This document shows positions 109-21,810 of a DNA stretch of 21,810 nucleotides, piece after piece. How positions within the stretch are numbered: position 1 is the first letter of the stretch; every line of letters begins with the position of its first letter. Origin of the DNA: an uncultured virus (IMG/VR IMGVR_UViG_3300033148_006048) (Duplodnaviria > Heunggongvirae > Uroviricota > Caudoviricetes); IMG/VR virus record IMGVR_UViG_3300033148_006048, one strand, 5' to 3'. A program made the translations under genes and the position numbers. Under the pieces are notes generated by a model. The model did not search any database. It saw only the letters and a program-made list of their open reading frames with translations, and was not told the DNA's origin.

Positions 109-352
109 AAACTAATTTAATTATTTTATTAAAATATTTAGTCCAATAACTTCTCTCACTTTTTCTATTAACAGAGGTATTACATTTGTGACATAAAGTT
201 ATTAAATTTTTTTCATCACAATTTTTCTTATCGTAATCAATATGGTGAACTGTCAACCAATTCTTTGATTTCTTTAAATCTCTTGGTTTTTTAGTATAAA
301 ATCCACATTTCTTACAAGTATAATTATCTCTAACTTTAATCTTATCTTTCAA
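98..352 (-). pseudogene. HNH endonuclease C-terminal domain (TTG start; probably the 3' part of a broken gene)
   Basis: RDNYTCKKC...VHHIDYDKKNC...NLITLCHKCN...RSYW: zinc-binding HNH/HNN motif. Confidence 0.85.
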
Positions 353-6400: not shown

Positions 6401-6977
6401 TTTTTATCTTCTCCCACCAAAGCTCTGGCCTCTTACTAGCAATTAAAAAAAAGTAAATACAATTATTCGCGTCCCTGTTCTGTGACAAATAAACTGGTGT
6501 TATCTCTCTATTTTCGCACATTTTTCTAATCGCTTCTTCCGAAAACCGCCAATAATCACCATAACTTTTATCAGTCGCAGGGTGATATTCCTGCATCCAC
6601 GGCAACACCAATATCAAAATGTCCCGCGTCATATAACATAAATTCTTAAAGGCCGTCTGAAAATCGTAAACATGCTCTAGTGTTGTATGATTAAACACCG
6701 TATCAAAAGCACCATACATCTTAGAGTCCAATGGTTTTTCTAAATCTAGCTCAATCTCGCCTTTCTTGCCTTGAAACCCCCGATAATCTTCCCTAAAATT
6801 GGTTATCGTATAACTCTTGCAACCCCTAAAATAATAACTATAATTACAATTACTTTTGTCATTGTCTTTCCATGCTGACACATTAACAATGTCACCTTTA
6901 AAAAGACCGACAAATTTTTTTAATTCGTTATTTGACCATTCTCGGTTTAAGATTGGTTTAGTATCGTTCAGAATCAT
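6366..6977 (-). CDS. class I SAM-dependent methyltransferase-like protein
   Basis: ELDLE, FDTVFNHTTLEHVYD, LVLPWMQEYHP...GDYWRFSEEAI; motif I is degenerate (IVNVSAW). Confidence 0.75.
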   Translation of the reverse strand: MILNDTKPILNREWSNNELKKFVGLFKGDIVNVSAWKDNDKSNCNYSYYFRGCKSYTITNFREDYRGFQGKKGEIELDLEKPLDSKMYGAFDTVFNHTTLEHVYDFQTAFKNLCYMTRDILILVLPWMQEYHPATDKSYGDYWRFSEEAIRKMCENREITPVYLSQNRDANNCIYFFLIASKRPELWWEKIKNVQDLLQQEKV

Positions 6978-8613
6978 ACATCTTATATAATAATAACTTA
7001 CTTTCTTTTATTTGATTTCGTATTTCGGGGAGGTGCTTAGAACTTTTAATCTCTTTAGCTTTGGCACTCTCAAGAAATGAAAACTTGCCTCCTTGCTTCT
7101 TCCAACGAGTCCTAACTTCTTGAGTCATACCTCCGTATTTTGTAATTCTTTCATTAAAAAGACCGAACGCTATACAGAAATTTCGTCTAACTGCTGAGAA
7201 ATTCTCAACAAATGCTACCTTTGTACTACTACCTTTTTTGCCGTTAAACCAAACTCTCTTCTCTCCACCTTCATTAATAGCGCCAGCGTTCTCAACTGCA
7301 TTAACAAAATTATAGACCGCATCCTCGTAAGGGCACAGCCTACTATCGTTAAAAACCAAAATCTCACCAGCCGATTCTATTACTCCAAGATTCCTAGCCA
7401 TCGCTAAATTGTAACCTTCTTTTCCAGTATATAATTGTTTTATAGGAAGTTCACACTCTGCAAAAGTCCTCTCTTTTTTTTCTACTTCATCCCAAATAAC
7501 TACTGCTTCAATATTTGGATAAGTCTGATTATCTAATGATTCTAAAATTTGTTCAACTTGCTCCTTTCTGTCATAAGTCGCAGGAATAATAACTGAAGCT
7601 AATTTATGCTCAGGGTGAACCACGCTATACCAAACCTTTTCATATTCTCTAGCCATCTTTTCTTCCAACATGTGCTTAACAACCTCAAATCCGCCCAATC
7701 TAAGGCTCTGTCTCAATTTAGCGTCCTTCATAAGCCTATTGAGCGCGAATCTAAGCGCTTTAAAGTCATTACACGGTACTACCAAGCAATTACTTTCATT
7801 TCGCGCGTATCCTTCCAAAATACCGGCCTGTCCCGTTGGCGTGGTAATAACCGGTACGCCACTCGCCCACGCTTCAAGCACCGGCAAAGGACCCTCTTCA
7901 TATCCCGGACCCGAATTATTAACAAAACAAGTCAAACTATTATAAAAATCTTTTCTCTCGTTGTCTTCACACTCAACATAGTCATATCGTATTTTATGTT
8001 TCGGAACATTCGCCCAATATTTGTAGTCAATAACTTTCCCCATCATCATCAATTCATAATCCAATTCCCGGCAAGCCTGCGCTAAATCTTTTAAATTCTT
8101 CCAAGCAACAACCCGCCCAGCATATCCAACAATCCCCCTTTGCGGTTCTTTGTCGTTCCATTTAAATAAATTCTGGTCAATTCCATACCGAATAACCTTA
8201 ACATTTTCTGCCACACCCTTCTCCTCCAACATCGTTTTGGCCTCGTTAGTATGGCACATAATCTGGTTAATCTCATAACAAGGTTTGTCTTTTATTCCCT
8301 GCCTCTTCTGCCAATTCCCGTGAAGTAATGCTTTATCTCTAACGTTGTGGTGCATTAAACAAGATTTATATGTCTTAAGTTCTGGTAATGCTTCAATAAG
8401 CTGTGAGGCACTTCTAAAGTACTCATACTGTATCAAATCAGGTTTGAATTTATTAACTAACGCAATAAAGGATAACTGAGTCTTTTGTTGTCCTGCGTCT
8501 CTCGGTGGAACATAAGCAAATTGAATTTGATGATGCTTGTTGAATTTTGCGACACTTTGAGCAAGCGTATCGATAGCCCAGCCTTGAATGTCACATACAA
8601 AAAGTATTTTCAT
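6958..8613 (-). CDS. bifunctional GT4 (N-terminal) + GT2 (C-terminal) glycosyltransferase
   Basis: GT-B: YGIDQNLF, VGYAGRVVAWKN, EEGPLPVLEAWASGVPVITT. GT-A: ASVIIPA, YNLAMARNLGVIESAGEILVFNDSR, GLFNE...YGG. Confidence 0.92.
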   Translation of the reverse strand: MKILFVCDIQGWAIDTLAQSVAKFNKHHQIQFAYVPPRDAGQQKTQLSFIALVNKFKPDLIQYEYFRSASQLIEALPELKTYKSCLMHHNVRDKALLHGNWQKRQGIKDKPCYEINQIMCHTNEAKTMLEEKGVAENVKVIRYGIDQNLFKWNDKEPQRGIVGYAGRVVAWKNLKDLAQACRELDYELMMMGKVIDYKYWANVPKHKIRYDYVECEDNERKDFYNSLTCFVNNSGPGYEEGPLPVLEAWASGVPVITTPTGQAGILEGYARNESNCLVVPCNDFKALRFALNRLMKDAKLRQSLRLGGFEVVKHMLEEKMAREYEKVWYSVVHPEHKLASVIIPATYDRKEQVEQILESLDNQTYPNIEAVVIWDEVEKKERTFAECELPIKQLYTGKEGYNLAMARNLGVIESAGEILVFNDSRLCPYEDAVYNFVNAVENAGAINEGGEKRVWFNGKKGSSTKVAFVENFSAVRRNFCIAFGLFNERITKYGGMTQEVRTRWKKQGGKFSFLESAKAKEIKSSKHLPEIRNQIKESKLLLYKMYDSERY

Positions 8614-8801
8614 ATAATTTTTTTATAATTAGCTAAATAACCTTTACCTTTGCCAATTGAATTAACAAGTAATATCTCAAAAAATTTTCGATACCACTGT
8701 ATATAAATCCACCATCTAAAATATTCATCTTTACCAGTCTTAGAATGTTCCGCTGGAGTTTTTTGTCCTCTAGTAAAAGGAATCGGTATATATATTTTCA
8801 T
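8610..8801 (-). CDS. hypothetical 63-aa protein
   Basis: Start and stop overlap both neighbours (TAATG, ATGA). Confidence 0.65.
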   Translation of the reverse strand: MKIYIPIPFTRGQKTPAEHSKTGKDEYFRWWIYIQWYRKFFEILLVNSIGKGKGYLANYKKII

Positions 8802-9454
8802 TACTTATAAACATTAACTCTTAATTTAAAGGGATGGTCTTGCCATTCTGCTTTATTCATATCAAATCCTGCGCCTTTTAAATCTCTCCACAAAATATTC
8901 TTAGTAAATATATTCAAATGCGCGTCGTATTCATGCTTCTGTTGTCCCAAAAAAGTATAAAGCCATCTAGTTGGTCCTATTTTGCCTTTACCTTTACACT
9001 TTGGACAATCTTCTCTTGCTCTAAACGCCATCCAAGGGTCTTTCATGTGAGCTTTATGTGGCACGCAATCACAAATCTCACCATTAGCATAATATTCCAT
9101 CGCTCTACCAGCATCAGGAACTTGAATATACATCTTGCCTCCTCGCTTTAAAACTCGATGACACTCTTTTAAAACAGCGATAGTTCGATGAAAACTAATG
9201 TGTTCGAGGCACTCTTCAAAATAAATCTCATCAATCTCATCGTCTTTCAATCGAAATTGAGCATCTAATCCATTCCTATTTGAAGTCAAGATTGCACACT
9301 TCTCTTTATTTGCAACATTAAACTGCCAAGGAGTACTGGATATATCCCCGACCAAGTGAACACGAGGAAGGTCAAGAATATCTACATTTATATATTCTTC
9401 ACTTATATCTTTATTATGACTACCAAGATTTAATTTAATTTTTTTGTTTTCCAT
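8801..9454 (-). CDS. class I SAM-dependent methyltransferase with Cys-rich insertion
   Basis: KLNLGSH...YINVDI...GDI, ECLEHI...LKECHRVLKRGG..IQVPD; insertion ICDC...CPKC. Confidence 0.88.
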   Translation of the reverse strand: MENKKIKLNLGSHNKDISEEYINVDILDLPRVHLVGDISSTPWQFNVANKEKCAILTSNRNGLDAQFRLKDDEIDEIYFEECLEHISFHRTIAVLKECHRVLKRGGKMYIQVPDAGRAMEYYANGEICDCVPHKAHMKDPWMAFRAREDCPKCKGKGKIGPTRWLYTFLGQQKHEYDAHLNIFTKNILWRDLKGAGFDMNKAEWQDHPFKLRVNVYK

Positions 9455-9629
9455 AAAAATATTTAATCCAATATTCTCTGTTAAAATTAGTTTTAATATG
9501 GCAACTTTTACACAATGTAATCAAGTTATTTGGATTACAATTTTTCTTGTCGTAATCAATATGATGAACTGATAATGCTCTATTATTTTGTTTCTTCCCA
9601 CATAACTGACAAGTATAATTATCTCTCTG
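9435..9629 (-). pseudogene. start-less HNH endonuclease remnant
   Basis: After an in-frame TAG: QRDNYTCQLCGKKQNNRALSVHHIDYDKKNCNPNNLITLCKSCHIKTNFNREYWIKYFYGKQKN*; paralogous to 98-352. Confidence 0.88.
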
Positions 9630-9718
9630 CTATGACAGTTAGGACAAAGTAACAAAATATTTTTTCTAACATTATTCTTAGGATTCAAATCTTTATGATG
9701 TATTTCTAAAATTTTAGG
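9629..9718 (-). pseudogene. second, different HNH fragment fused out of frame
   Basis: PKILEIHHKDLNPKNNVRKNILLLCPNCHS, preceded by an in-frame TGA. Confidence 0.8.
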
Positions 9719-9758
9719 TCAAATTATTATGACTTCCTAGGTTAAGTTTTATGCTCAT
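9714..9758 (-). pseudogene. orphan 5' stub duplicating the methyltransferase N-terminus
   Basis: ATGA-coupled MSIKLNLGSHNNLT* matches IKLNLGSHN of 8801-9454. Confidence 0.85.
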
Positions 9759-10762
9759 AAATTTGATTTTAAAATTTTAATTAATTTTCTTATCTGCGTC
9801 CGCTCGTCAGGTAGACCTTTCTTTGACGGATAGTGCCTCTTAAATGCTTTCTGAATAGCACTAAGGCATTTCTGGTATTGATGGTCACCCAGAGAGAATG
9901 AAATCTCTTTGTTGTAATAAGTGTGAAATGGATGAGCGTCTTGAACTACAACATTTGCTCCCATCTTCAAACCTTCAGCAATTACCATATTCGCACCAGT
10001 GAGCATTGGACAGACCACTACTTTAACTTGCCCCATCAACTTCTTTATATCCTCATTCGGCAAAAAGTCTATCCAGCCCCCACTGTGTCCTACCCGCCAA
10101 ATCTTAAACGTGCCCTCTGCCTGATTCTGCCATGGGTGCTTATTGAAGTGATGGACAAATTTACCATTTTTACTTTTGCGCCCCCACTTTGCCGCCACTG
10201 CTATCGCCTTGTTCTCTCGCTGGTCCCAAGGCAACTTATGGTCGATGTCTTTTATATAAAGTGGGCTATGAGCGATTATATTGGCTTTTTTAAATATCTT
10301 TTTAGCCAAATCATTCTCCCAACCATCAAAAGTTAAAGTCGCCTTCGCATTCTCAAGCGTGTACTTCTCTCTTAAATAAATACCACCAGAATTAAGTCTA
10401 GAAATAAGATGTCTATTATCCATTTCCATTAACTGCTTGTAATTATCAACATACCCACTCTTCTGTATCATGTACTCTGAGCTGTCAAAACTCCCAAGGT
10501 CAACAACCGTCTTATAGCCATACTTACTGACAAAATTACTGGCCAACCCTGCCCCATGTGACAATATTACGTCAGGCTGAAACTCATCATATGTCTTCTG
10601 AAATAATGTTCTATACCAACCCGTTTTGCCTGTATATTGAACGTCCCTGACAAGTAGTAACCTAACTTCGTGGCCTTCCTCTCTTAGAAGCTCAACCATC
10701 CGTCTCATTCGAGCATTCCAGTCGGTCAATGCTCCAAATGGATTGGTATAAAGTATTTTCAT
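9755..10762 (-). CDS. divergent GT-B (GT4-like) glycosyltransferase
   Basis: MKILYTNPF...RMVELLREEGHEVRLL; FQPDVILSHG; LPNEDIKKLMGQVKVVVCP...NMVIAEGLKMGANVV. Confidence 0.75.
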   Translation of the reverse strand: MKILYTNPFGALTDWNARMRRMVELLREEGHEVRLLLVRDVQYTGKTGWYRTLFQKTYDEFQPDVILSHGAGLASNFVSKYGYKTVVDLGSFDSSEYMIQKSGYVDNYKQLMEMDNRHLISRLNSGGIYLREKYTLENAKATLTFDGWENDLAKKIFKKANIIAHSPLYIKDIDHKLPWDQRENKAIAVAAKWGRKSKNGKFVHHFNKHPWQNQAEGTFKIWRVGHSGGWIDFLPNEDIKKLMGQVKVVVCPMLTGANMVIAEGLKMGANVVVQDAHPFHTYYNKEISFSLGDHQYQKCLSAIQKAFKRHYPSKKGLPDERTQIRKLIKILKSNL

Positions 10763-10917
10763 ATCAATCCAATATAGGGCGGGAATAAATCAATCACAAA
10801 TGTTCCCCAACTAGTATTCAATCCGTAAATCAAAGCAATGAAAATAAAAATACCAATTAAAAATAAAATACAACTACCGCAACCACAAGTACAATTTGTT
10901 GAATTATTATCAGATAT
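10759..10917 (-). CDS. 52-aa Cys-rich membrane protein with apparent ATA start
   Basis: (I)SDNNSTNCTCGCGSCILFLIGIFIFIALIYGLNTSWGTFVIDLFPPYIGLI*. It fills the gap exactly and its TGA overlaps the next ATG; no in-frame ATG/GTG/TTG lies upstream of the TM helix. Confidence 0.6.
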   Translation of the reverse strand: MSDNNSTNCTCGCGSCILFLIGIFIFIALIYGLNTSWGTFVIDLFPPYIGLI

Positions 10918-10918
10918 A

Positions 10919-11206
10919 TTATCTATTTTTAATAATCTTCTTTAAATTATGACTCGGTTTAAACTTAACAACTCTCACTTCTGGAATTTCAATCTTCTCT
11001 TCTGGATTTTGTGGATTGAAACCTTGTCTACCTTTTCGCATTTTTGTGCTGAAAGTTCCCAACTTAGTAAACTTAACATCTTCGCCTTTCTGTAATGCGT
11101 CAGTCATAATAAAAAATAGAGTATCAATAACATTACTAACAGTCTTTTTATTAACTGTCTCAAGCAAAAAAGCTACCCTTATTGCAATCTCGTCTTTGTT
11201 AATCAT
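10919..11206 (-). CDS. hup: HU/IHF-family DNA-binding protein
   Basis: MINKDEIA...ALQKGEDVKFTKLGTFSTKMRKGRQGFNPQ...IEIPEVRVVKFKPS. ATG 11206 is preferred over 11230. Confidence 0.93.
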   Translation of the reverse strand: MINKDEIAIRVAFLLETVNKKTVSNVIDTLFFIMTDALQKGEDVKFTKLGTFSTKMRKGRQGFNPQNPEEKIEIPEVRVVKFKPSHNLKKIIKNR

Positions 11207-12137
11207 TTTTATTGTCTCCTTCATACTCATACTCGACCTTTACATTATCTGGCAACGTTGAATTAGTATTGTCCCCAACGCCATTACCATAAACTCCTTT
11301 CAGTAAATCCAAACTCTTACCCGATTCCGTCAAAAGCTGTATATTCTTATCTTCAAGTGCCTCTAAAATCTTCAAGCTAAGTTCGTCCGCCACCGAACCA
11401 TCTCCCATTTTCTTACTAAAAATCTCTCTAAAAGCGGCGAAGTCTTTAATAAAGCAATGCCCGCCTGCTCCTCGGCCTCCCTGATGTTCCACGTCAAGAT
11501 GAGTAAACCCAACCCTCGGGTCATAACTCATTCCCTGCTTAACAATCTCATATTCAATATCAAGCTTCTGACATAGTTCATAAAGAATATTAATATACAT
11601 TACCTTAAAGTAAAACCAGCAATTTCCTGTATATTTAATCATTTCCGCTTCTTTTGCTGGTATTATTGATTTATATGGCGCTAAAGGTAAAACTTTCATT
11701 ACCAATTCTGCCGCTACTGCTCCTTTATCATCAACATAACCTATAATATTTCTGTTTGGATAAGCCACATCATACTTAGCAGTTGCTTCTGTTAAAAATT
11801 CAGGCGAATGTAAAACTGTTATATCAGGATAAATATTCTGTAATATTTCAGTAGTTCCAGGCAATATTGTCGATTTAATTACAGCTATTTTACCACGACC
11901 AATCAATTTAAGCACTTCTTGAACAATACTAAAATCAAATCCTTTGATTGTTGTTGGTGTTGGAACAGCAATAAAAACAATATCACATTCTCCAATCTTG
12001 TCTTTGTTATTTTCATATTCAGGTTCTTTAGCATAACGGACCACTTTATAATCTCGTTCTTCAAAGTTATCAGCATAATGCTTGCCAATCCAACCGATTC
12101 CAATTTGTCCTATAAGTGGTTTTTTATTGTTTTTCAT
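11199..12137 (-). CDS. ugd: UDP-glucose/GDP-mannose dehydrogenase family, short form
   Basis: GIGWIG, FIAVPTP, IKSTILPGTT, SPEFL, EAEMIKY, DPRVG, GAGGHCFIKD (catalytic Cys). Confidence 0.92.
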   Translation of the reverse strand: MKNNKKPLIGQIGIGWIGKHYADNFEERDYKVVRYAKEPEYENNKDKIGECDIVFIAVPTPTTIKGFDFSIVQEVLKLIGRGKIAVIKSTILPGTTEILQNIYPDITVLHSPEFLTEATAKYDVAYPNRNIIGYVDDKGAVAAELVMKVLPLAPYKSIIPAKEAEMIKYTGNCWFYFKVMYINILYELCQKLDIEYEIVKQGMSYDPRVGFTHLDVEHQGGRGAGGHCFIKDFAAFREIFSKKMGDGSVADELSLKILEALEDKNIQLLTESGKSLDLLKGVYGNGVGDNTNSTLPDNVKVEYEYEGDNKND

Positions 12138-12171: not shown

Positions 12172-12759
12172 TTAGTTTACAATTCGCTTTGCGATAATCA
12201 AATGTCCAGTCATATTGTGGAATTTATAATTCCTCGCCGGCCTCATCCCGTCCCTAGTACAAGCCGTAATAAACGGACTAGAATCCCGCCAAACTCGTCT
12301 GTCATACTCCTCAATCTCAAAACCAAACTCCGGCAACACCTTCTGCCAAAAATACTCCGTATACCTCAAATAATCCATATCCATCGGGTTGTGCGTCGGA
12401 TAAATAAACGGCGCCGAAATCCACAGCCTACCTCCGTCCTTCAACAAATCACTAAAAGTCCCAAGCGCCTGCATAGGATTCCAAATATACTCCCAAAGCT
12501 CAAAAGTAAAAATATCGTCAAACTTTTTTTCAAGCTTCTCCTGCTCCAAAACCGAAAGCTGATGTTTTCTCGGTAAATTAACATCCATCACAACGTCCGG
12601 CTTATACTTCTCATCAACATCAATCGTCACGATTTCTTTAACATCGTGGCTTTTAAAATACTTCAAATCCTCATTCATGCAACCAATACTCAACAACCTA
12701 TCAGATTTAATGGTCTTTTCTCCAAGCCAACTAATTAATTGGTCTTTGTAGTAAGAAAT
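12172..12759 (-). CDS. class I SAM-dependent methyltransferase; frame extends 21 codons above the TTG at 12696 to an ATT
   Basis: (I)SYYKDQLISWLGEKTIKSDRLLSIGC...TIDVD...PDVVMDVN, FDDIFTFELWEY, LLKDGGRLWISAPF.YPTH...DYLRYT. Confidence 0.85.
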   Translation of the reverse strand: MSYYKDQLISWLGEKTIKSDRLLSIGCMNEDLKYFKSHDVKEIVTIDVDEKYKPDVVMDVNLPRKHQLSVLEQEKLEKKFDDIFTFELWEYIWNPMQALGTFSDLLKDGGRLWISAPFIYPTHNPMDMDYLRYTEYFWQKVLPEFGFEIEEYDRRVWRDSSPFITACTRDGMRPARNYKFHNMTGHLIIAKRIVN

Positions 12760-13291: not shown

Positions 13292-14026
13292 TTAGTTATT
13301 AATTTTTAAGTATTGTTTAATCTGCCTTCGAACGCTAACTTTCGCTGAAGGCATCGTAACGTCTTGCTTAACCTTAAATTCTCGATTATCCTCCAAAAAA
13401 ACCTTCTTCAAATCAGTACAATTTTCCTGCTCATACATATCAACAATCTCCCACGGCGATATAGTTCCCTCATTAACAAAGTTTAAAATTCCAACTGAAT
13501 CGTTCTCAATCTCCTGCTTTAAAGAAAAAACAAAATCATCCAAAACTGTCACCGAACTCTTAAGTCCAGTTATCTTCTCGTAACCCAAAAGTTTGTCAAT
13601 CAAATTCCTCGGGTGCGGTTTGCTGTCAATCGGCAAATTAATCCGCGCAATCAAAACATTATCATAATCAAGCAAAATGTCCTCGGCCATCTTCTTAGTT
13701 TGGGAATAAAAAGAATTGTCATACTCAACATAACAAGTTGACAAATGAACCAGTTTTATGTTCTTACTTTTACAAACCTGCTTAAGCAAATACGGAATAT
13801 GAACATTACTAAAGTAACTTTCACTTTTGTTATTATCACACCAACTAATGTTAGTTTCTCCACATCTTCCAATCGCGTTAACAACAACCTTAATCTCGCT
13901 GTCATCAAGTGCCTCTTCAATCTCCTCTCGGCTCAAAAGCCAATTATCGTAAAGCCGACAATCCAAACCCTCGGCAATCTTCCTGCCTATCCAGCCCCCA
14001 CCTAAAACTATAATATCTTTTCTCAT
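13292..14026 (-). CDS. NAD(P)-dependent NDP-sugar epimerase/reductase (RmlD-like; resembles the 3,5-epimerase/4-reductase type)
   Basis: VLGGGWIG, VVNAIGRCGETNISWC, LVHLSTC, FYSQTK (YxxxK), RINLPI...PRNLIDKL, GILNFVNEG. Confidence 0.85.
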   Translation of the reverse strand: MRKDIIVLGGGWIGRKIAEGLDCRLYDNWLLSREEIEEALDDSEIKVVVNAIGRCGETNISWCDNNKSESYFSNVHIPYLLKQVCKSKNIKLVHLSTCYVEYDNSFYSQTKKMAEDILLDYDNVLIARINLPIDSKPHPRNLIDKLLGYEKITGLKSSVTVLDDFVFSLKQEIENDSVGILNFVNEGTISPWEIVDMYEQENCTDLKKVFLEDNREFKVKQDVTMPSAKVSVRRQIKQYLKINN

Positions 14027-14274: not shown

Positions 14275-15125
14275 ATTAAACTTTGAAAAATCTCTAAATA
14301 CTTTCTACCCATTTGTTGTATTGTGTATGGATTATTTTTATGAAGTTCTATCATTTCTAAAGTTCCACCTTCCGAGTTTGGATATAGTATTTCTAAACCA
14401 CAAGCGAGTGCTTCAATTACCATATTTGGTGCGGCTTCGGCGAAACTCGGATAAAGAATAAAATCACACTGCTTCATTAGCCTGGCTACATCTTCAGGAG
14501 TCTTCATTATGCCTTTATATTCTACTTTTCCATTTGTTGGTAAATCCCAATTAAACTCAGGGTGTTCAAGATAAACTCTCGGCACATTCCCAGCAATCCA
14601 CAAATGGTTGCTATTATCATGCCTCCACTCCATATCAAACCAATAAAGAGCTTCATCAAAACGTTTATTAGGATTATCATTGTAGTTTATGTAAAGATAA
14701 GTATGGCCATCACTTTCCCGGCCGTTAATATTGAAAACATCCGGGTCAACTCCGTTCGTAACAATAAACTCATTCTCGTTCTCAATAAAATACCCCGCAT
14801 ACTTCCTAGCCCACTCGCTCTGATAAACAACCGCCTCTGCCATAGCCCCAAACTCTGCCAATCTCTCCGCAGGTGACATTCTTTTATTCCGACTTCGTCT
14901 GGGGATATTGTCGCAACGAAGAATTATTTTTTTTCCCAGCTTGTGTGCTTCGTAAATCTCCGCTTTGTCAATCGCAGTCACTCCAAAAATAAACACAATA
15001 TCGCCCTTGTCCCAACTATCAACAAACTGAACCTCGTGCCTAACCGCCTTCCTGAAATTTCTAAGAAATGTAAAACCACCCCCAATGCTAGTCTTACTTA
15101 TGTTCGGTACGTAAACCTTCAACAT
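14271..15125 (-). CDS. GT4 glycosyltransferase
   Basis: IGGGFTFLRNF, VVYQSEW, NGVDPDVF, CDFILYPSFAEAAPNMVIEALACG. Confidence 0.92.
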   Translation of the reverse strand: MLKVYVPNISKTSIGGGFTFLRNFRKAVRHEVQFVDSWDKGDIVFIFGVTAIDKAEIYEAHKLGKKIILRCDNIPRRSRNKRMSPAERLAEFGAMAEAVVYQSEWARKYAGYFIENENEFIVTNGVDPDVFNINGRESDGHTYLYINYNDNPNKRFDEALYWFDMEWRHDNSNHLWIAGNVPRVYLEHPEFNWDLPTNGKVEYKGIMKTPEDVARLMKQCDFILYPSFAEAAPNMVIEALACGLEILYPNSEGGTLEMIELHKNNPYTIQQMGRKYLEIFQSLI

Positions 15126-15432
15126 CAATTTTGTCTGTGAATTTTAAGTCTTTAAGATAATCCTTCATCTCACTTTCATACTTACCAATAACCGCCTTCT
15201 CAATAGCCGTATAAACCTCGCGCTTAATCGGGTGGTATATATTTATCTCTCGCGTTCCAATTTTCTTAGTCGGCCAAAGCAGTCTAAAACTGCCATATTT
15301 ACCTGTTAATCTTGTTTGAATCCCGAGAGACCCAATATAAATCTTATTATCGATGACGCAACTAGCAATCGCCACCAACCCATCTTTAGGTTTAATCGGG
15401 ATTATTTCGACTTCCGTTACCTTTGTTTCCAT
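15094..15432 (-). CDS. spoVG: SpoVG-family nucleic-acid-binding protein
   Basis: KVTEVEIIPIKPKDGLVAIASCVIDNKIYIGSLGI...LLWPTKK...IYHPIKRE...IEKAVIGKY. Confidence 0.85.
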   Translation of the reverse strand: METKVTEVEIIPIKPKDGLVAIASCVIDNKIYIGSLGIQTRLTGKYGSFRLLWPTKKIGTREINIYHPIKREVYTAIEKAVIGKYESEMKDYLKDLKFTDKIDVEGLRTEHK

Positions 15433-15475
15433 AGGTTTATGTTTACTTATTTAGGAAGTCGCTATTTTGTAAGGT

Positions 15476-15592
15476 CTATTTATAAATTAAAATTAAAATT
15501 AAAAAGAAAATCACGCAAAATTCAAAACCGAATAACCACCAAACGAATGTAGCCAATAAACCAAGTCCAATGTATTCTCCTAATGTATTCAT
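15476..15592 (-). CDS. 38-aa hydrophobic membrane peptide
   Basis: MNTLGEYIGLGLLATFVWWLFGFEFCVIFFLILILIYK*; starts 2 nt after the upstream stop. Confidence 0.65.
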   Translation of the reverse strand: MNTLGEYIGLGLLATFVWWLFGFEFCVIFFLILILIYK

Positions 15593-16004: not shown

Positions 16005-16106
16005 TTATTTATCTGGTTCTAATTTGTAAATCCTATCAGCTAGGTACTTCAAATCCTCAACCATAACATCTAAATCAGTATAATCTTTTTATTTTATTTC
16101 AACCAT
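16005..16106 (-). pseudogene. small ORF remnant with internal stop
   Basis: MVEIK*KDYTDLDVMVEDLKYLADRIYKLEPDK* in a single frame, filling the gap. Confidence 0.35.
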
Positions 16107-16737
16107 TATTACTCGCTATATATTTAAAAAGTACATCTAATTCATCAAATAAACCAAATTTTGATACCTCCCAGCTATGCCCCCAAATATGGTAAATTGC
16201 CCCGGTCTTCTTGGCTTCTTCAAATAAATTAATCGCGTATTCCAACCAATGTAATCCCTCATACTCTGGCCGTGCCGGGTGAACATGAACCGCCGGGTGA
16301 ATCCGGTACATATTCTCGCCCAAATCTTCATAATTATTATCGTAAAGATGACCAACAAGCGTCGTTCTCGCATACTTAAATCCCGCCCGTTTAACCATCT
16401 CAATCGTCGTCTCATTATATCTCCCCCTCGGGTAGCAAAACCACCTAATCTTCTGTCCTCCGCTCATAGCCTTCAACCAACCTCGATTGCTCGCTATCTC
16501 GTCCGCCTGTCGGCCTTCGGTTAATCTTTTCAAGTCTTGGTGGTGCGTCCGGGTATGCCCGCCAATCTCAAACCCCATTTTGGCCAGTCTGCCAATCCCG
16601 CTCATTCCAATATTCGTATATGGCGACCAATTCGGTATAAAAAAGATTCCGGGTAAATCGTATTCTTTTAAAAGTTCCGCTATTTTGAAATCATATTTAT
16701 TCCCATCGTCCCAACTCGTTTTCACGCGCACATGCAT
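16099..16737 (-). CDS. polysaccharide deacetylase (CE4/NodB-like)
   Basis: TSWDDG, EIGGHTRTH, FCYPRG, YART, HIWGHSWE. Confidence 0.92.
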   Translation of the reverse strand: MHVRVKTSWDDGNKYDFKIAELLKEYDLPGIFFIPNWSPYTNIGMSGIGRLAKMGFEIGGHTRTHHQDLKRLTEGRQADEIASNRGWLKAMSGGQKIRWFCYPRGRYNETTIEMVKRAGFKYARTTLVGHLYDNNYEDLGENMYRIHPAVHVHPARPEYEGLHWLEYAINLFEEAKKTGAIYHIWGHSWEVSKFGLFDELDVLFKYIASNNG

Positions 16738-16940
16738 AATTTATTTTTAAAATAATTAGTCCAATATTCTCTATTACGATTAACCTTCATATTACACCTT
16801 AAACAAAGAGTATTTAGATTATCTTCTTTACAATTATTTTTATCAAAATCAATATGATTAACACTAAGAACTCTATTTAATTCTTCTAATTCCTCTCGTT
16901 CTGTTCTACCACATAATTGACATGTAAAATTATCTCGCTC
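16722..16940 (-). pseudogene. start-less HNH endonuclease remnant
   Basis: After an in-frame TAA: ERDNFTCQLCGRTEREELEELNRVLSVNHIDFDKNNCKEDNLNTLCLRCNMKVNRNREYWTNYF...*. Confidence 0.88.
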
Positions 16941-21387: not shown

Positions 21388-21810
21388 TTCTTATTTAGAT
21401 TTTTTTTATCTTTCAATAACTTGTAGAAAGCTGGCTGTCTAATCTTCTTATATTCTGCCCAAGCTGGCTGTTCAATCTTTTCATACTTTGCCCAAGCTGG
21501 CTGTCTAATCTTTTCATATTCTGCTAAAGCTGACTGTCTAATCTTCTTATATTCTGTCCAAGCTGACTGTTCAATTCAATCTTTTCATATTCTGCTAAAG
21601 CTGACTGTCTAATCTTCTTATATTCTGTCCAAGCTGACTGTTCAATCTTTTCATACTTTGCCCAAGCTGGCTGTCTAATCTTTTCATATTCTGCTAAAGC
21701 TGGCTGTCTAATCTTCTTATATTCTGCTAAAGCTGGCTGTTCAATCTTCTCATACTTTGCCCAAGCTGGCTGTCTAATCTTTTCATATTCTGCTAAAGCT
21801 GACTGTCTAA
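21375..21810 (-). pseudogene. 3' part of an 11-aa-repeat helical protein gene with a frameshift
   Basis: (R/E)Q(S/P)A(L/W)(A/T)(E/K)Y(E/K)KI repeats ending PAFYKLLKDKKNLNKNWVK*; a duplicated ATTGA at 21571-21580 shifts the frame. Confidence 0.75.
21429..21810. repeat. 33-bp coding tandem repeat, 11 full units plus a partial one in view
   Basis: Unit (minus strand): AGA/GAA CAG YCA GCT TKR RCA RAR TAT RAR AAG ATT. Confidence 0.97.

Follow-up and report, generated by a model that had tools for sequence, protein, structure and literature searches.

Comparison with described systems

In fungal mitochondria, mobile endonuclease open reading frames (mORFs) make gene hybrids, examples of which are atp6 of Allomyces and atp6, atp9, cox2 and nad3 of Glomus (PMC3630166). 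In T4-like phages the MobA system comprises an HNH gene and an element-encoded homologous region (homR), to which extensions at both protein termini and the bypass of gene 60 are added (bioRxiv 10.1101/2022.08.31.505936), and for T4 illegitimate 'one-sided' homing with microhomology joints has been described in the relevant part of PMC2988022. Here we describe a locus that shares features with these systems. It lies in a 21,810-nucleotide stretch of DNA from an uncultured virus of the Caudoviricetes (IMG/VR record IMGVR_UViG_3300033148_006048), called the window in the following, and contains an intact gene for an S-adenosylmethionine (SAM)-dependent methyltransferase, whose first codons occur a second time 313 nt away with the remnants of two HNH endonuclease genes in between. 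The 313 extra bases are probably the decayed scar of a homing endonuclease at the 5' boundary of the methyltransferase gene, where partly illegitimate repair would have imported a foreign head.

As in the mORF hybrids, the endonuclease DNA is flanked by two copies of one host-gene end, a close relative resembles the native copy more than the inserted one, the differences are largely synonymous, and the foreign copy is joined to the working gene with no intron or intein involved. In the fungal hybrids, however, the 3' end is replaced and the native end lies downstream, whereas in the window the 5' end is replaced and a new start codon is needed. The mORFs encode endonucleases of the LAGLIDADG or GIY-YIG type that are often intact, whereas the window holds two dead HNH fragments; furthermore, the fungal hosts are organellar genomes and the present one is a phage. 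By analogy, the arrangement in the window appears as the 5' mirror of the mitochondrial hybrids.

The likeness to MobA is that an HNH element sits inside a phage open reading frame (ORF) without intron or intein, that it carries its own version of the target segment and supplies the downstream part with a new N-terminus, that close relatives have empty alleles and that the endonuclease has often decayed later. In contrast to MobA, which leaves two working proteins and a target shortened by 55-75 nt, the window has a useless stub of 14 codons and its target codons are duplicated. It possesses neither a bypass cassette nor conserved extensions, and the methyltransferase ORF runs uninterrupted through 217 codons. 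The free-standing endonucleases Seg and Mob of T-even phages, as treated in part of PMC2988022, resemble the locus in that the endonuclease gene lies beside its target and the flank is co-converted, and in that joints form at non-homologous sites when one flank is homologous. The kept start stub together with a re-headed gene distinguishes the window from the T-even account in that part of the source. A literature search yielded no phage account of this combination, which does not prove that none exists.

The duplicated gene start

All features of the locus described below are on the minus strand, which is the orientation of almost all genes in this region. The first copy of the gene start is a short ORF at positions 9714-9758, MSIKLNLGSHNNLT, of 14 codons and a stop, here called the stub. 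It reads MSIKLNLGSHN like the start of the resident methyltransferase and then continues with NLT. The repeated part is ATA AAA CTT AAC CTA GGA AGT CAT AAT in the stub (9726-9752) and ATT AAA TTA AAT CTT GGT AGT CAT AAT in the gene (9413-9439), where the encoded IKLNLGSHN is motif I of the methyltransferase. The copies are identical in 21 of 27 nt and in all nine residues, so that the six differences are all synonymous. The initial annotation of this DNA had already pointed to two synonymous copies of IKLNLGSHN with two HNH remnants between them, and this was confirmed on the minus strand; only the end of the repeat, placed there at 9415, was 2 nt short of the true end at 9413.

If six substitutions fell at random in the 27 nt, the probability of all being synonymous would be 3.5e-5 (200,000 trials). 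Compared with L031, a metagenome contig that carries the gene without the insertion (see below), the stub copy differs at 3 and the gene copy at 6 of the 27 nt, which is a small sample. The proportion of synonymous sites that differ (pS) is 0.94 between stub and gene copy, and thus saturated, and 0.55 between the stub and L031. For comparison, pS against L031 is 0.62 for the whole methyltransferase gene and 0.74 for the glycosyltransferase-like (GT) gene upstream of the stub. Because all differences are synonymous and pS is at or above the level found between phages, the two copies must have diverged within working genes of different lineages. A recoding of the target that confers resistance to cleavage, as had been suggested initially, would not have to be invoked for this: the synonymous divergence between stub and gene (0.94 as against 0.62-0.74) seems explicable without any special recoding.

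Two broken HNH genes between the copies

The fragment next to the stub, HNH1 (9629-9718), is an internal piece of an HNH core of 30 codons, PKILEIHHKDLNPKNNVRKNILLLCPNCHS, with the motif ILEIHHKD..N..NN..LLCPNCHS. It has no start codon, no first CxxC knuckle and no final His, and its match to the Pfam family HNH_3 (E 0.007) lies below the cutoff. A query of 34 aa found 306 library proteins at E<=0.001 and none at E<=1e-10, with the HNH motif aligned. Ten relatives that were inspected have the form C..CG, 8-10 residues, ILE[IL]HHKD.N..NN...N.LLCPNCH..H; the relative P0214 is 76% identical to HNH1 and, like P0226, matches PF01844.

The second fragment, HNH2 (9438-9629), is read in a different frame and consists of 64 C-terminal codons running from QRDNYTCQLCGKK to VHHIDYDKKNCNPNNLITLCKSCHIKTNFNREYWIKYFYGKQKN and a stop. 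It matches PF01844 with an E value of 1.5e-7 (31.9 bits, cutoff 21.4) and shows the motifs QRDNYTCQLCG...HH...N...CKSCH. HNH2 represents the last third of a family of NUMOD3-HNH homing endonucleases, from which 1677 longer proteins were retrieved at E<=0.001; the best are 78-81% identical and they are typically 120-285 aa long. The fragment starts exactly at RDNYTCQLCG, so that the nuclease core and the natural tail are complete while the start codon and the N-terminal DNA-binding two thirds are gone. Thus HNH2 retains an HNH motif, but neither fragment is a complete ORF with a start and a DNA-binding region. HNH1 and HNH2 are only 35-39% identical and belong to different families. This bears out two HNH types, from which a serial invasion had been deduced; a strict series does not follow.

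Each fragment is interrupted inside the nuclease domain or at its border, and both endonuclease genes are therefore dead. The loss of the first zinc knuckle and of the last His from HNH1 means that the stub is joined to the middle of a nuclease core. Both inner joints are thus illegitimate joints or deletions and not ends of an element. The cassette is not clean: the left junction cuts through the catalytic core of HNH1 and the inner junction has taken two thirds of HNH2. The stub could have arisen as a side product when a break was repaired illegitimately or when DNA was deleted.

An empty allele and other occupants of the boundary

Relatives of the methyltransferase were found only in uncultured material, namely 48 proteins, 19 viral loci, two metagenome loci and one contig of a metagenome-assembled genome. 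In the scan of viral contigs a single-protein query found no relative and an alignment-based query found the 19 loci; the metagenome scan yielded only L031 and L032, and the scan of genome contigs gave nothing with a close alignment and one locus, L033, with a broad one. Among GenBank phages, neither the DNA of 8600-10800 nor the methyltransferase protein had a match.

One of the metagenome loci, L031, has a methyltransferase 71% identical to that of the window. There the GT homologue ends with TAA and is followed after 4 nt by ATG TCC ATA AAA CTT AAC CTT GGG AGT CAC AAT AAA, which encodes MSIKLNLGSHNKRIGKEY; its gene start, MSIKLNLGSHNK, is of the same type as the stub. The DNA of L031 and of the window is collinear over the GT and methyltransferase genes with a mean column identity of ~77% and a single gap of 313 nt in L031. 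An allele with the stub contiguous with the gene had been put forward initially as a check, and L031 is such an empty allele, differing by the 313-nt insertion. Intact HNH alleles of this lineage, the other half of that check, were not found.

Stub-type starts of the form MS-[IV]KLNLGSH.K occur in 6 of 26 aligned homologues (P0002, P0003, P0007, P0008, P0013 and P0016), and in most of the remaining ones M and 0-2 residues immediately precede KLNLGS. A start with MENK followed by IKLNLGSHNKDI is common only to the window and P0004 (70% identical overall). From these starts, and from the closeness of the stub to L031, it follows that the stub is the native start of the gene and MENKK the odd one. 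A degenerate DNA pattern for the head MENK[KE]IKLNLGSHNK had no match in viral contigs.

Upstream, the TGA of the GT gene (9755-10762, 335 aa, ending KILKSNL; weak match to Pfam Glyco_trans_1_4, E 0.0065) overlaps the ATG of the stub at 9758-9756 in an ATGA. Of the ancestral ATGA coupling that the stub was claimed to keep, only the tightness appears to be old; L031, with TAA, 4 nt and ATG, and the viral locus L028, with a GT/methyltransferase overlap of 17 nt, do not share the exact ATGA. GT homologues lie directly 5' of the methyltransferase in L031 and L028, while five genes intervene in L032 (1772-3990). The latter comprise a weakly HNH-like ORF of 184 aa (E 0.0042, below the cutoff), an ORF of 122 aa and three genes predicted to be cupin-like, cytidylyltransferase-like and kinase-like.

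The same boundary is occupied by other HNH genes in further lineages. In L026 the usual upstream ORF is separated from the methyltransferase gene by an intact HNH_3 ORF of 149 aa (E 4.3e-8), the end of which falls inside the methyltransferase start, and in L030 another HNH_3 ORF (E 1.4e-11) has the same position and also ends inside that start. L033, with an ATGA junction, is the empty counterpart of L026. The boundary is therefore polymorphic, L026 and L030 being occupied and L031, L017, L018, L014, L021 and L033 being empty, and it is a repeated landing place for HNH genes. L026 (1900-2460) and L033 (300-380) form a matched occupied/empty pair from a distant lineage. The upstream ORF of L026 ends with TCRKI* where L033 has KAIKV*, and the tail KKVCV* of the L026 endonuclease shares AAAGTATG with the empty junction. 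The upstream gene may thus have had a short piece of its 3' end replaced, although the DNA identity of the pair, ~62%, is too low for certainty.

The methyltransferase and its new head

The methyltransferase gene (8801-9454) encodes 217 aa and is intact, with the start MENKKIKLNLGSHNK / MENKKIKLNLGSHNKDISEEY. The product can be assigned to the class I SAM-dependent methyltransferases (Methyltransf_11/23) on account of a match to Methyltransf_11 (PF08241) of 27.9 bits at a cutoff of 21.2 and of the N-terminal motif I loop. Motif I, LNLGSH, aligns with LNLGCG or NFGCG of the relatives, all 27 sequences compared have its G11, and the 26 invariant columns of the alignment are all kept. Compared with L031, the proportion of nonsynonymous sites that differ (pN) is 0.156 and pS is 0.623, giving a pN/pS of 0.25. 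The gene is thus intact and subject to purifying selection. The insertion adjoins motif I, in agreement with the proposed position directly after the SAM-binding motif.

HNH2 and the methyltransferase gene overlap by 20 nt (9435-9454). In the overlap, a frame other than that of the endonuclease tail FYGKQKN* reads ATG GAA AAC AAA AAA and so specifies MENKK, and the stop of HNH2 (9437-9435) falls 20 nt inside the methyltransferase gene, whose own sequence picks up again at IKLNLGSHN. Members of the HNH2 family have 2-15 residues after EYWI.YF, and ~50 in one case. From these tail lengths FYGKQKN* can be recognised as the endonuclease's own end, so that the new start codon is endonuclease DNA, and in this respect the idea that the element supplied a new N-terminus has stood up. 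Stops located 11-20 nt inside the following gene are found in three HNH2-family cases of this phage.

The new head may extend beyond the repeat. In a mosaic scan, the ratio of informative sites agreeing with P0004 to those agreeing with P0002 was 11:2 in residues 1-31 and 12:49 thereafter, with the best breakpoint at residue 31; residues 1-31 thus resemble P0004 and residues 32-75 resemble P0002. This is suggestive of a mosaic methyltransferase with a foreign-like head and would fit a co-conversion tract of ~95 nt.

Proposed origin of the scar

In the explanation that we consider probable, the ancestral state would have been a GT gene tightly coupled to a methyltransferase gene with the start shown by L031. 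A break, its position, a donor and a sequence of events are inferred as follows. The donor lineage would have had a NUMOD3-HNH gene directly 5' of the methyltransferase gene with the MENKK start inside the 3' tail of the endonuclease gene. An endonuclease would have made a break in the resident gene, close to the codons of motif I, and repair on the right side would have copied the foreign head (to about codon 31) together with endonuclease DNA, the donor being homologous only on the methyltransferase side. On the left side, where no matching sequence was available, the ends would have been joined illegitimately, an event of the kind described for T4 in PMC2988022, or the junction would later have suffered a deletion. 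The first 11 resident codons would thereby have become a dead stub, attached to the central part of an older HNH gene from another family. HNH1 would have lost its 3' end, and HNH2 its DNA-binding two thirds, through one more illegitimate joint or deletion. The re-headed methyltransferase gene has lost its translational coupling to the upstream gene, with which it is probably still co-transcribed. When 9200-10000 was scanned for promoters and terminators, no terminator turned up, in the insert or elsewhere, and there were 7 promoter-like sites as against 3.9 +/- 1.7 in shuffles, which is uninformative.

Several points weigh against this explanation. Neither a donor nor an allele of this lineage with an intact endonuclease was found, and in a search for near-identical relatives of HNH2 the best longer protein was 81% identical, while a short one reached 87% across a portion of the query. 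Two HNH fragments and two broken joints call for at least two arrivals and one or two deletions, or for a complex single repair, and the order of arrivals and deletions cannot be told. That either endonuclease ever cut the methyltransferase gene is a supposition. The Fisher P of the mosaic scan, 1.7e-5, is uncorrected, its breakpoint is self-chosen, and the signal is inflated by the truncated C-terminus of P0004 and by the indel-rich residues 33-75 common to the window and P0002. Moreover, the stub resembles P0003 and L031 and not P0002, so that the recipient lineage is not cleanly identified. Finally, a comparable stub was seen in none of the 22 related loci and at neither of two other HNH copies tested in the same phage.

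It might be argued instead that a second, whole methyltransferase gene was placed 3' of the resident one together with endonuclease genes and that a deletion then ran from codon 12 of the resident gene to the middle of HNH1. The stub would be a deletion remnant and the present gene wholly foreign. A random deletion would indeed cut HNH1 within its catalytic core, as the left junction does, the second broken joint nearby tells that deletions or illegitimate joints do happen at the locus, and neighbouring methyltransferase genes exist in L012 and L015, which have one just upstream. The latter, however, are distant paralogues with 28% and 40% identity over partial matches and not close copies. 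Tandem close paralogues, which had been named at the outset as the outcome that would make the stub a simple deletion remnant, were looked for in the 22 related loci and occurred in none. Nor does a wholly foreign gene predict a switch of affinity at about residue 31, and the remainder of the methyltransferase gene is as close to L031 as the GT gene is (~77-80% nucleotide identity). We therefore regard this course of events as unlikely. Still somewhat less likely in our opinion is an adaptive, self-contained cassette, that is, an endonuclease element which regularly carries a start codon and resistant, respelled target codons and whose normal footprint is a stub. The new start codon inside the endonuclease tail, the MENK head shared with P0004 and the three endonuclease stops inside following genes would suit such an element, and in MobA elements an element-encoded homologous region replaces the cut site, as stated in the part of bioRxiv 10.1101/2022.08.31.505936 used here. 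Yet the footprint is not clean, the stub being fused to a broken nuclease core, and L026 has an intact endonuclease between the genes without any stub. As the stub is unique, a designed, recurrent cassette is not demonstrated here.

Mere chance similarity, or a repeat that has nothing to do with the endonuclease fragments, has a negligible probability. The shortness of the repeat and the AT-richness of the region (33% GC) might be thought to favour chance, but the extent of the identity in residues and nucleotides speaks against it, shuffling the codons of the 45-kb sequence 30 times never gave a 9-residue peptide repeat, and the start usual in the gene family, which the empty allele has as well, is that of the stub; this reading is refuted. 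Duplication of a target site followed by divergence in place was also rejected, since all differences are synonymous and the synonymous sites are near saturation, while a non-coding stub would have been free to change at any position. Translational bypass from stub to gene was discarded in view of the distance of 313 nt, of the gene's own ATG and of the fact that nine codons would be made twice; no test of it was run. An endonuclease borne by a group I intron or an intein was dismissed likewise: Rfam at permissive thresholds detected no intron in 8700-10900, and frames interrupted by stops make an intein impossible. The view that neither is needed is thus upheld, the methyltransferase ORF itself being uninterrupted.

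With its empty allele at hand, the locus shows that a gene can go on working after a selfish endonuclease has inserted in its coding sequence, with neither intron nor intein and without being split. The gene would receive a new head from another lineage. Scars of this kind would record former gene exchange among uncultured phages and account for unusual N-termini and small orphan ORFs in annotated phage genomes, and they would point to the DNA of conserved motifs as a target of endonucleases. With dead endonucleases, only one case of a stub and no donor found, what this one window contributes is modest. With some hesitation we put forward the more general possibility that phage homing endonucleases commonly enter the first codons of genes in a splicing-free manner, providing a start codon in their tail and foreign opening codons while the old start is left as a stub; the window would then be one decayed footprint, at a boundary occupied by at least 3-4 HNH lineages.

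Genomic setting and further HNH copies

The window overlaps an uncultured virus record, G001, of 43,562 bp (~52% complete according to CheckV). Position 1 of the window corresponds to position 23,408 of G001, and the window extends past the end of that record. The neighbourhood of the methyltransferase gene is a sugar-modification cluster with several glycosyltransferases, a UDP-glucose dehydrogenase-like, a radical-SAM and an epimerase-like protein, a polysaccharide deacetylase and two SAM-methyltransferases; genes for ClpP, HU, SpoVG and a DNA methylase are also nearby. Downstream, and outside the scar, a two-domain glycosyltransferase gene (6958-8613, 551 aa) is a conserved neighbour: 18 of the 19 viral loci, and also L032, have a homologue 3' of the methyltransferase, the exception being L016, a locus with only ~300 bases past the methyltransferase. 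In the window an ORF of 63 aa (8610-8801, minus) lies between the two genes. Their spacing is only 2-8 nt in L015, L017, L018, L021 and L025, and they nearly abut in L032.

When the record was searched with HNH2 at E<=1, eight matches were obtained, namely HNH2, HNH1 and six elsewhere that belong to five copies, one of them intact. The intact paralogue is a NUMOD3-HNH protein of 183 aa with three NUMOD3 stretches (G001 6558-7106, minus, outside the window). It lies 3' of a methyltransferase-like gene, its stop is 11 nt inside the start of the next gene, and there is no stub. A degenerate copy at 16740-16940 of the window (minus) is located directly 5' of the polysaccharide deacetylase gene (16099-16737) and ends 13 nt inside its start; the catalytic HH has become NH and CxxCH has become CxxCN. 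A stub of the deacetylase start was looked for upstream of this copy and was not present. Another fragment of the family (window 128-331, minus; 52-60% identical) lies 3' of the ClpP gene, and its N-terminal part is interrupted by stops.

The record also carries three group I introns away from the locus (G001 11283-11614, 12451-12732 and 13608-13875, minus, outside the window; Rfam scores of 59-66 bits at a gathering score of 50). An HNH2-family ORF at G001 11109-11336 adjoins the first of them, and an HNH ORF of 199 aa near G001 14997-15536 has intron-like sequence on its flanks. Two further repeats were noticed. At G001 2153-2750, outside the window, there is a direct repeat of ~40 nt with a spacing of 550 nt, and at 21427-21810 the window contains tandemly repeated coding sequence, with peptides such as EYEKIRQPAWAKYEKIEQ at spacings of 71, 99 and 170 nt, which continues past the window end.

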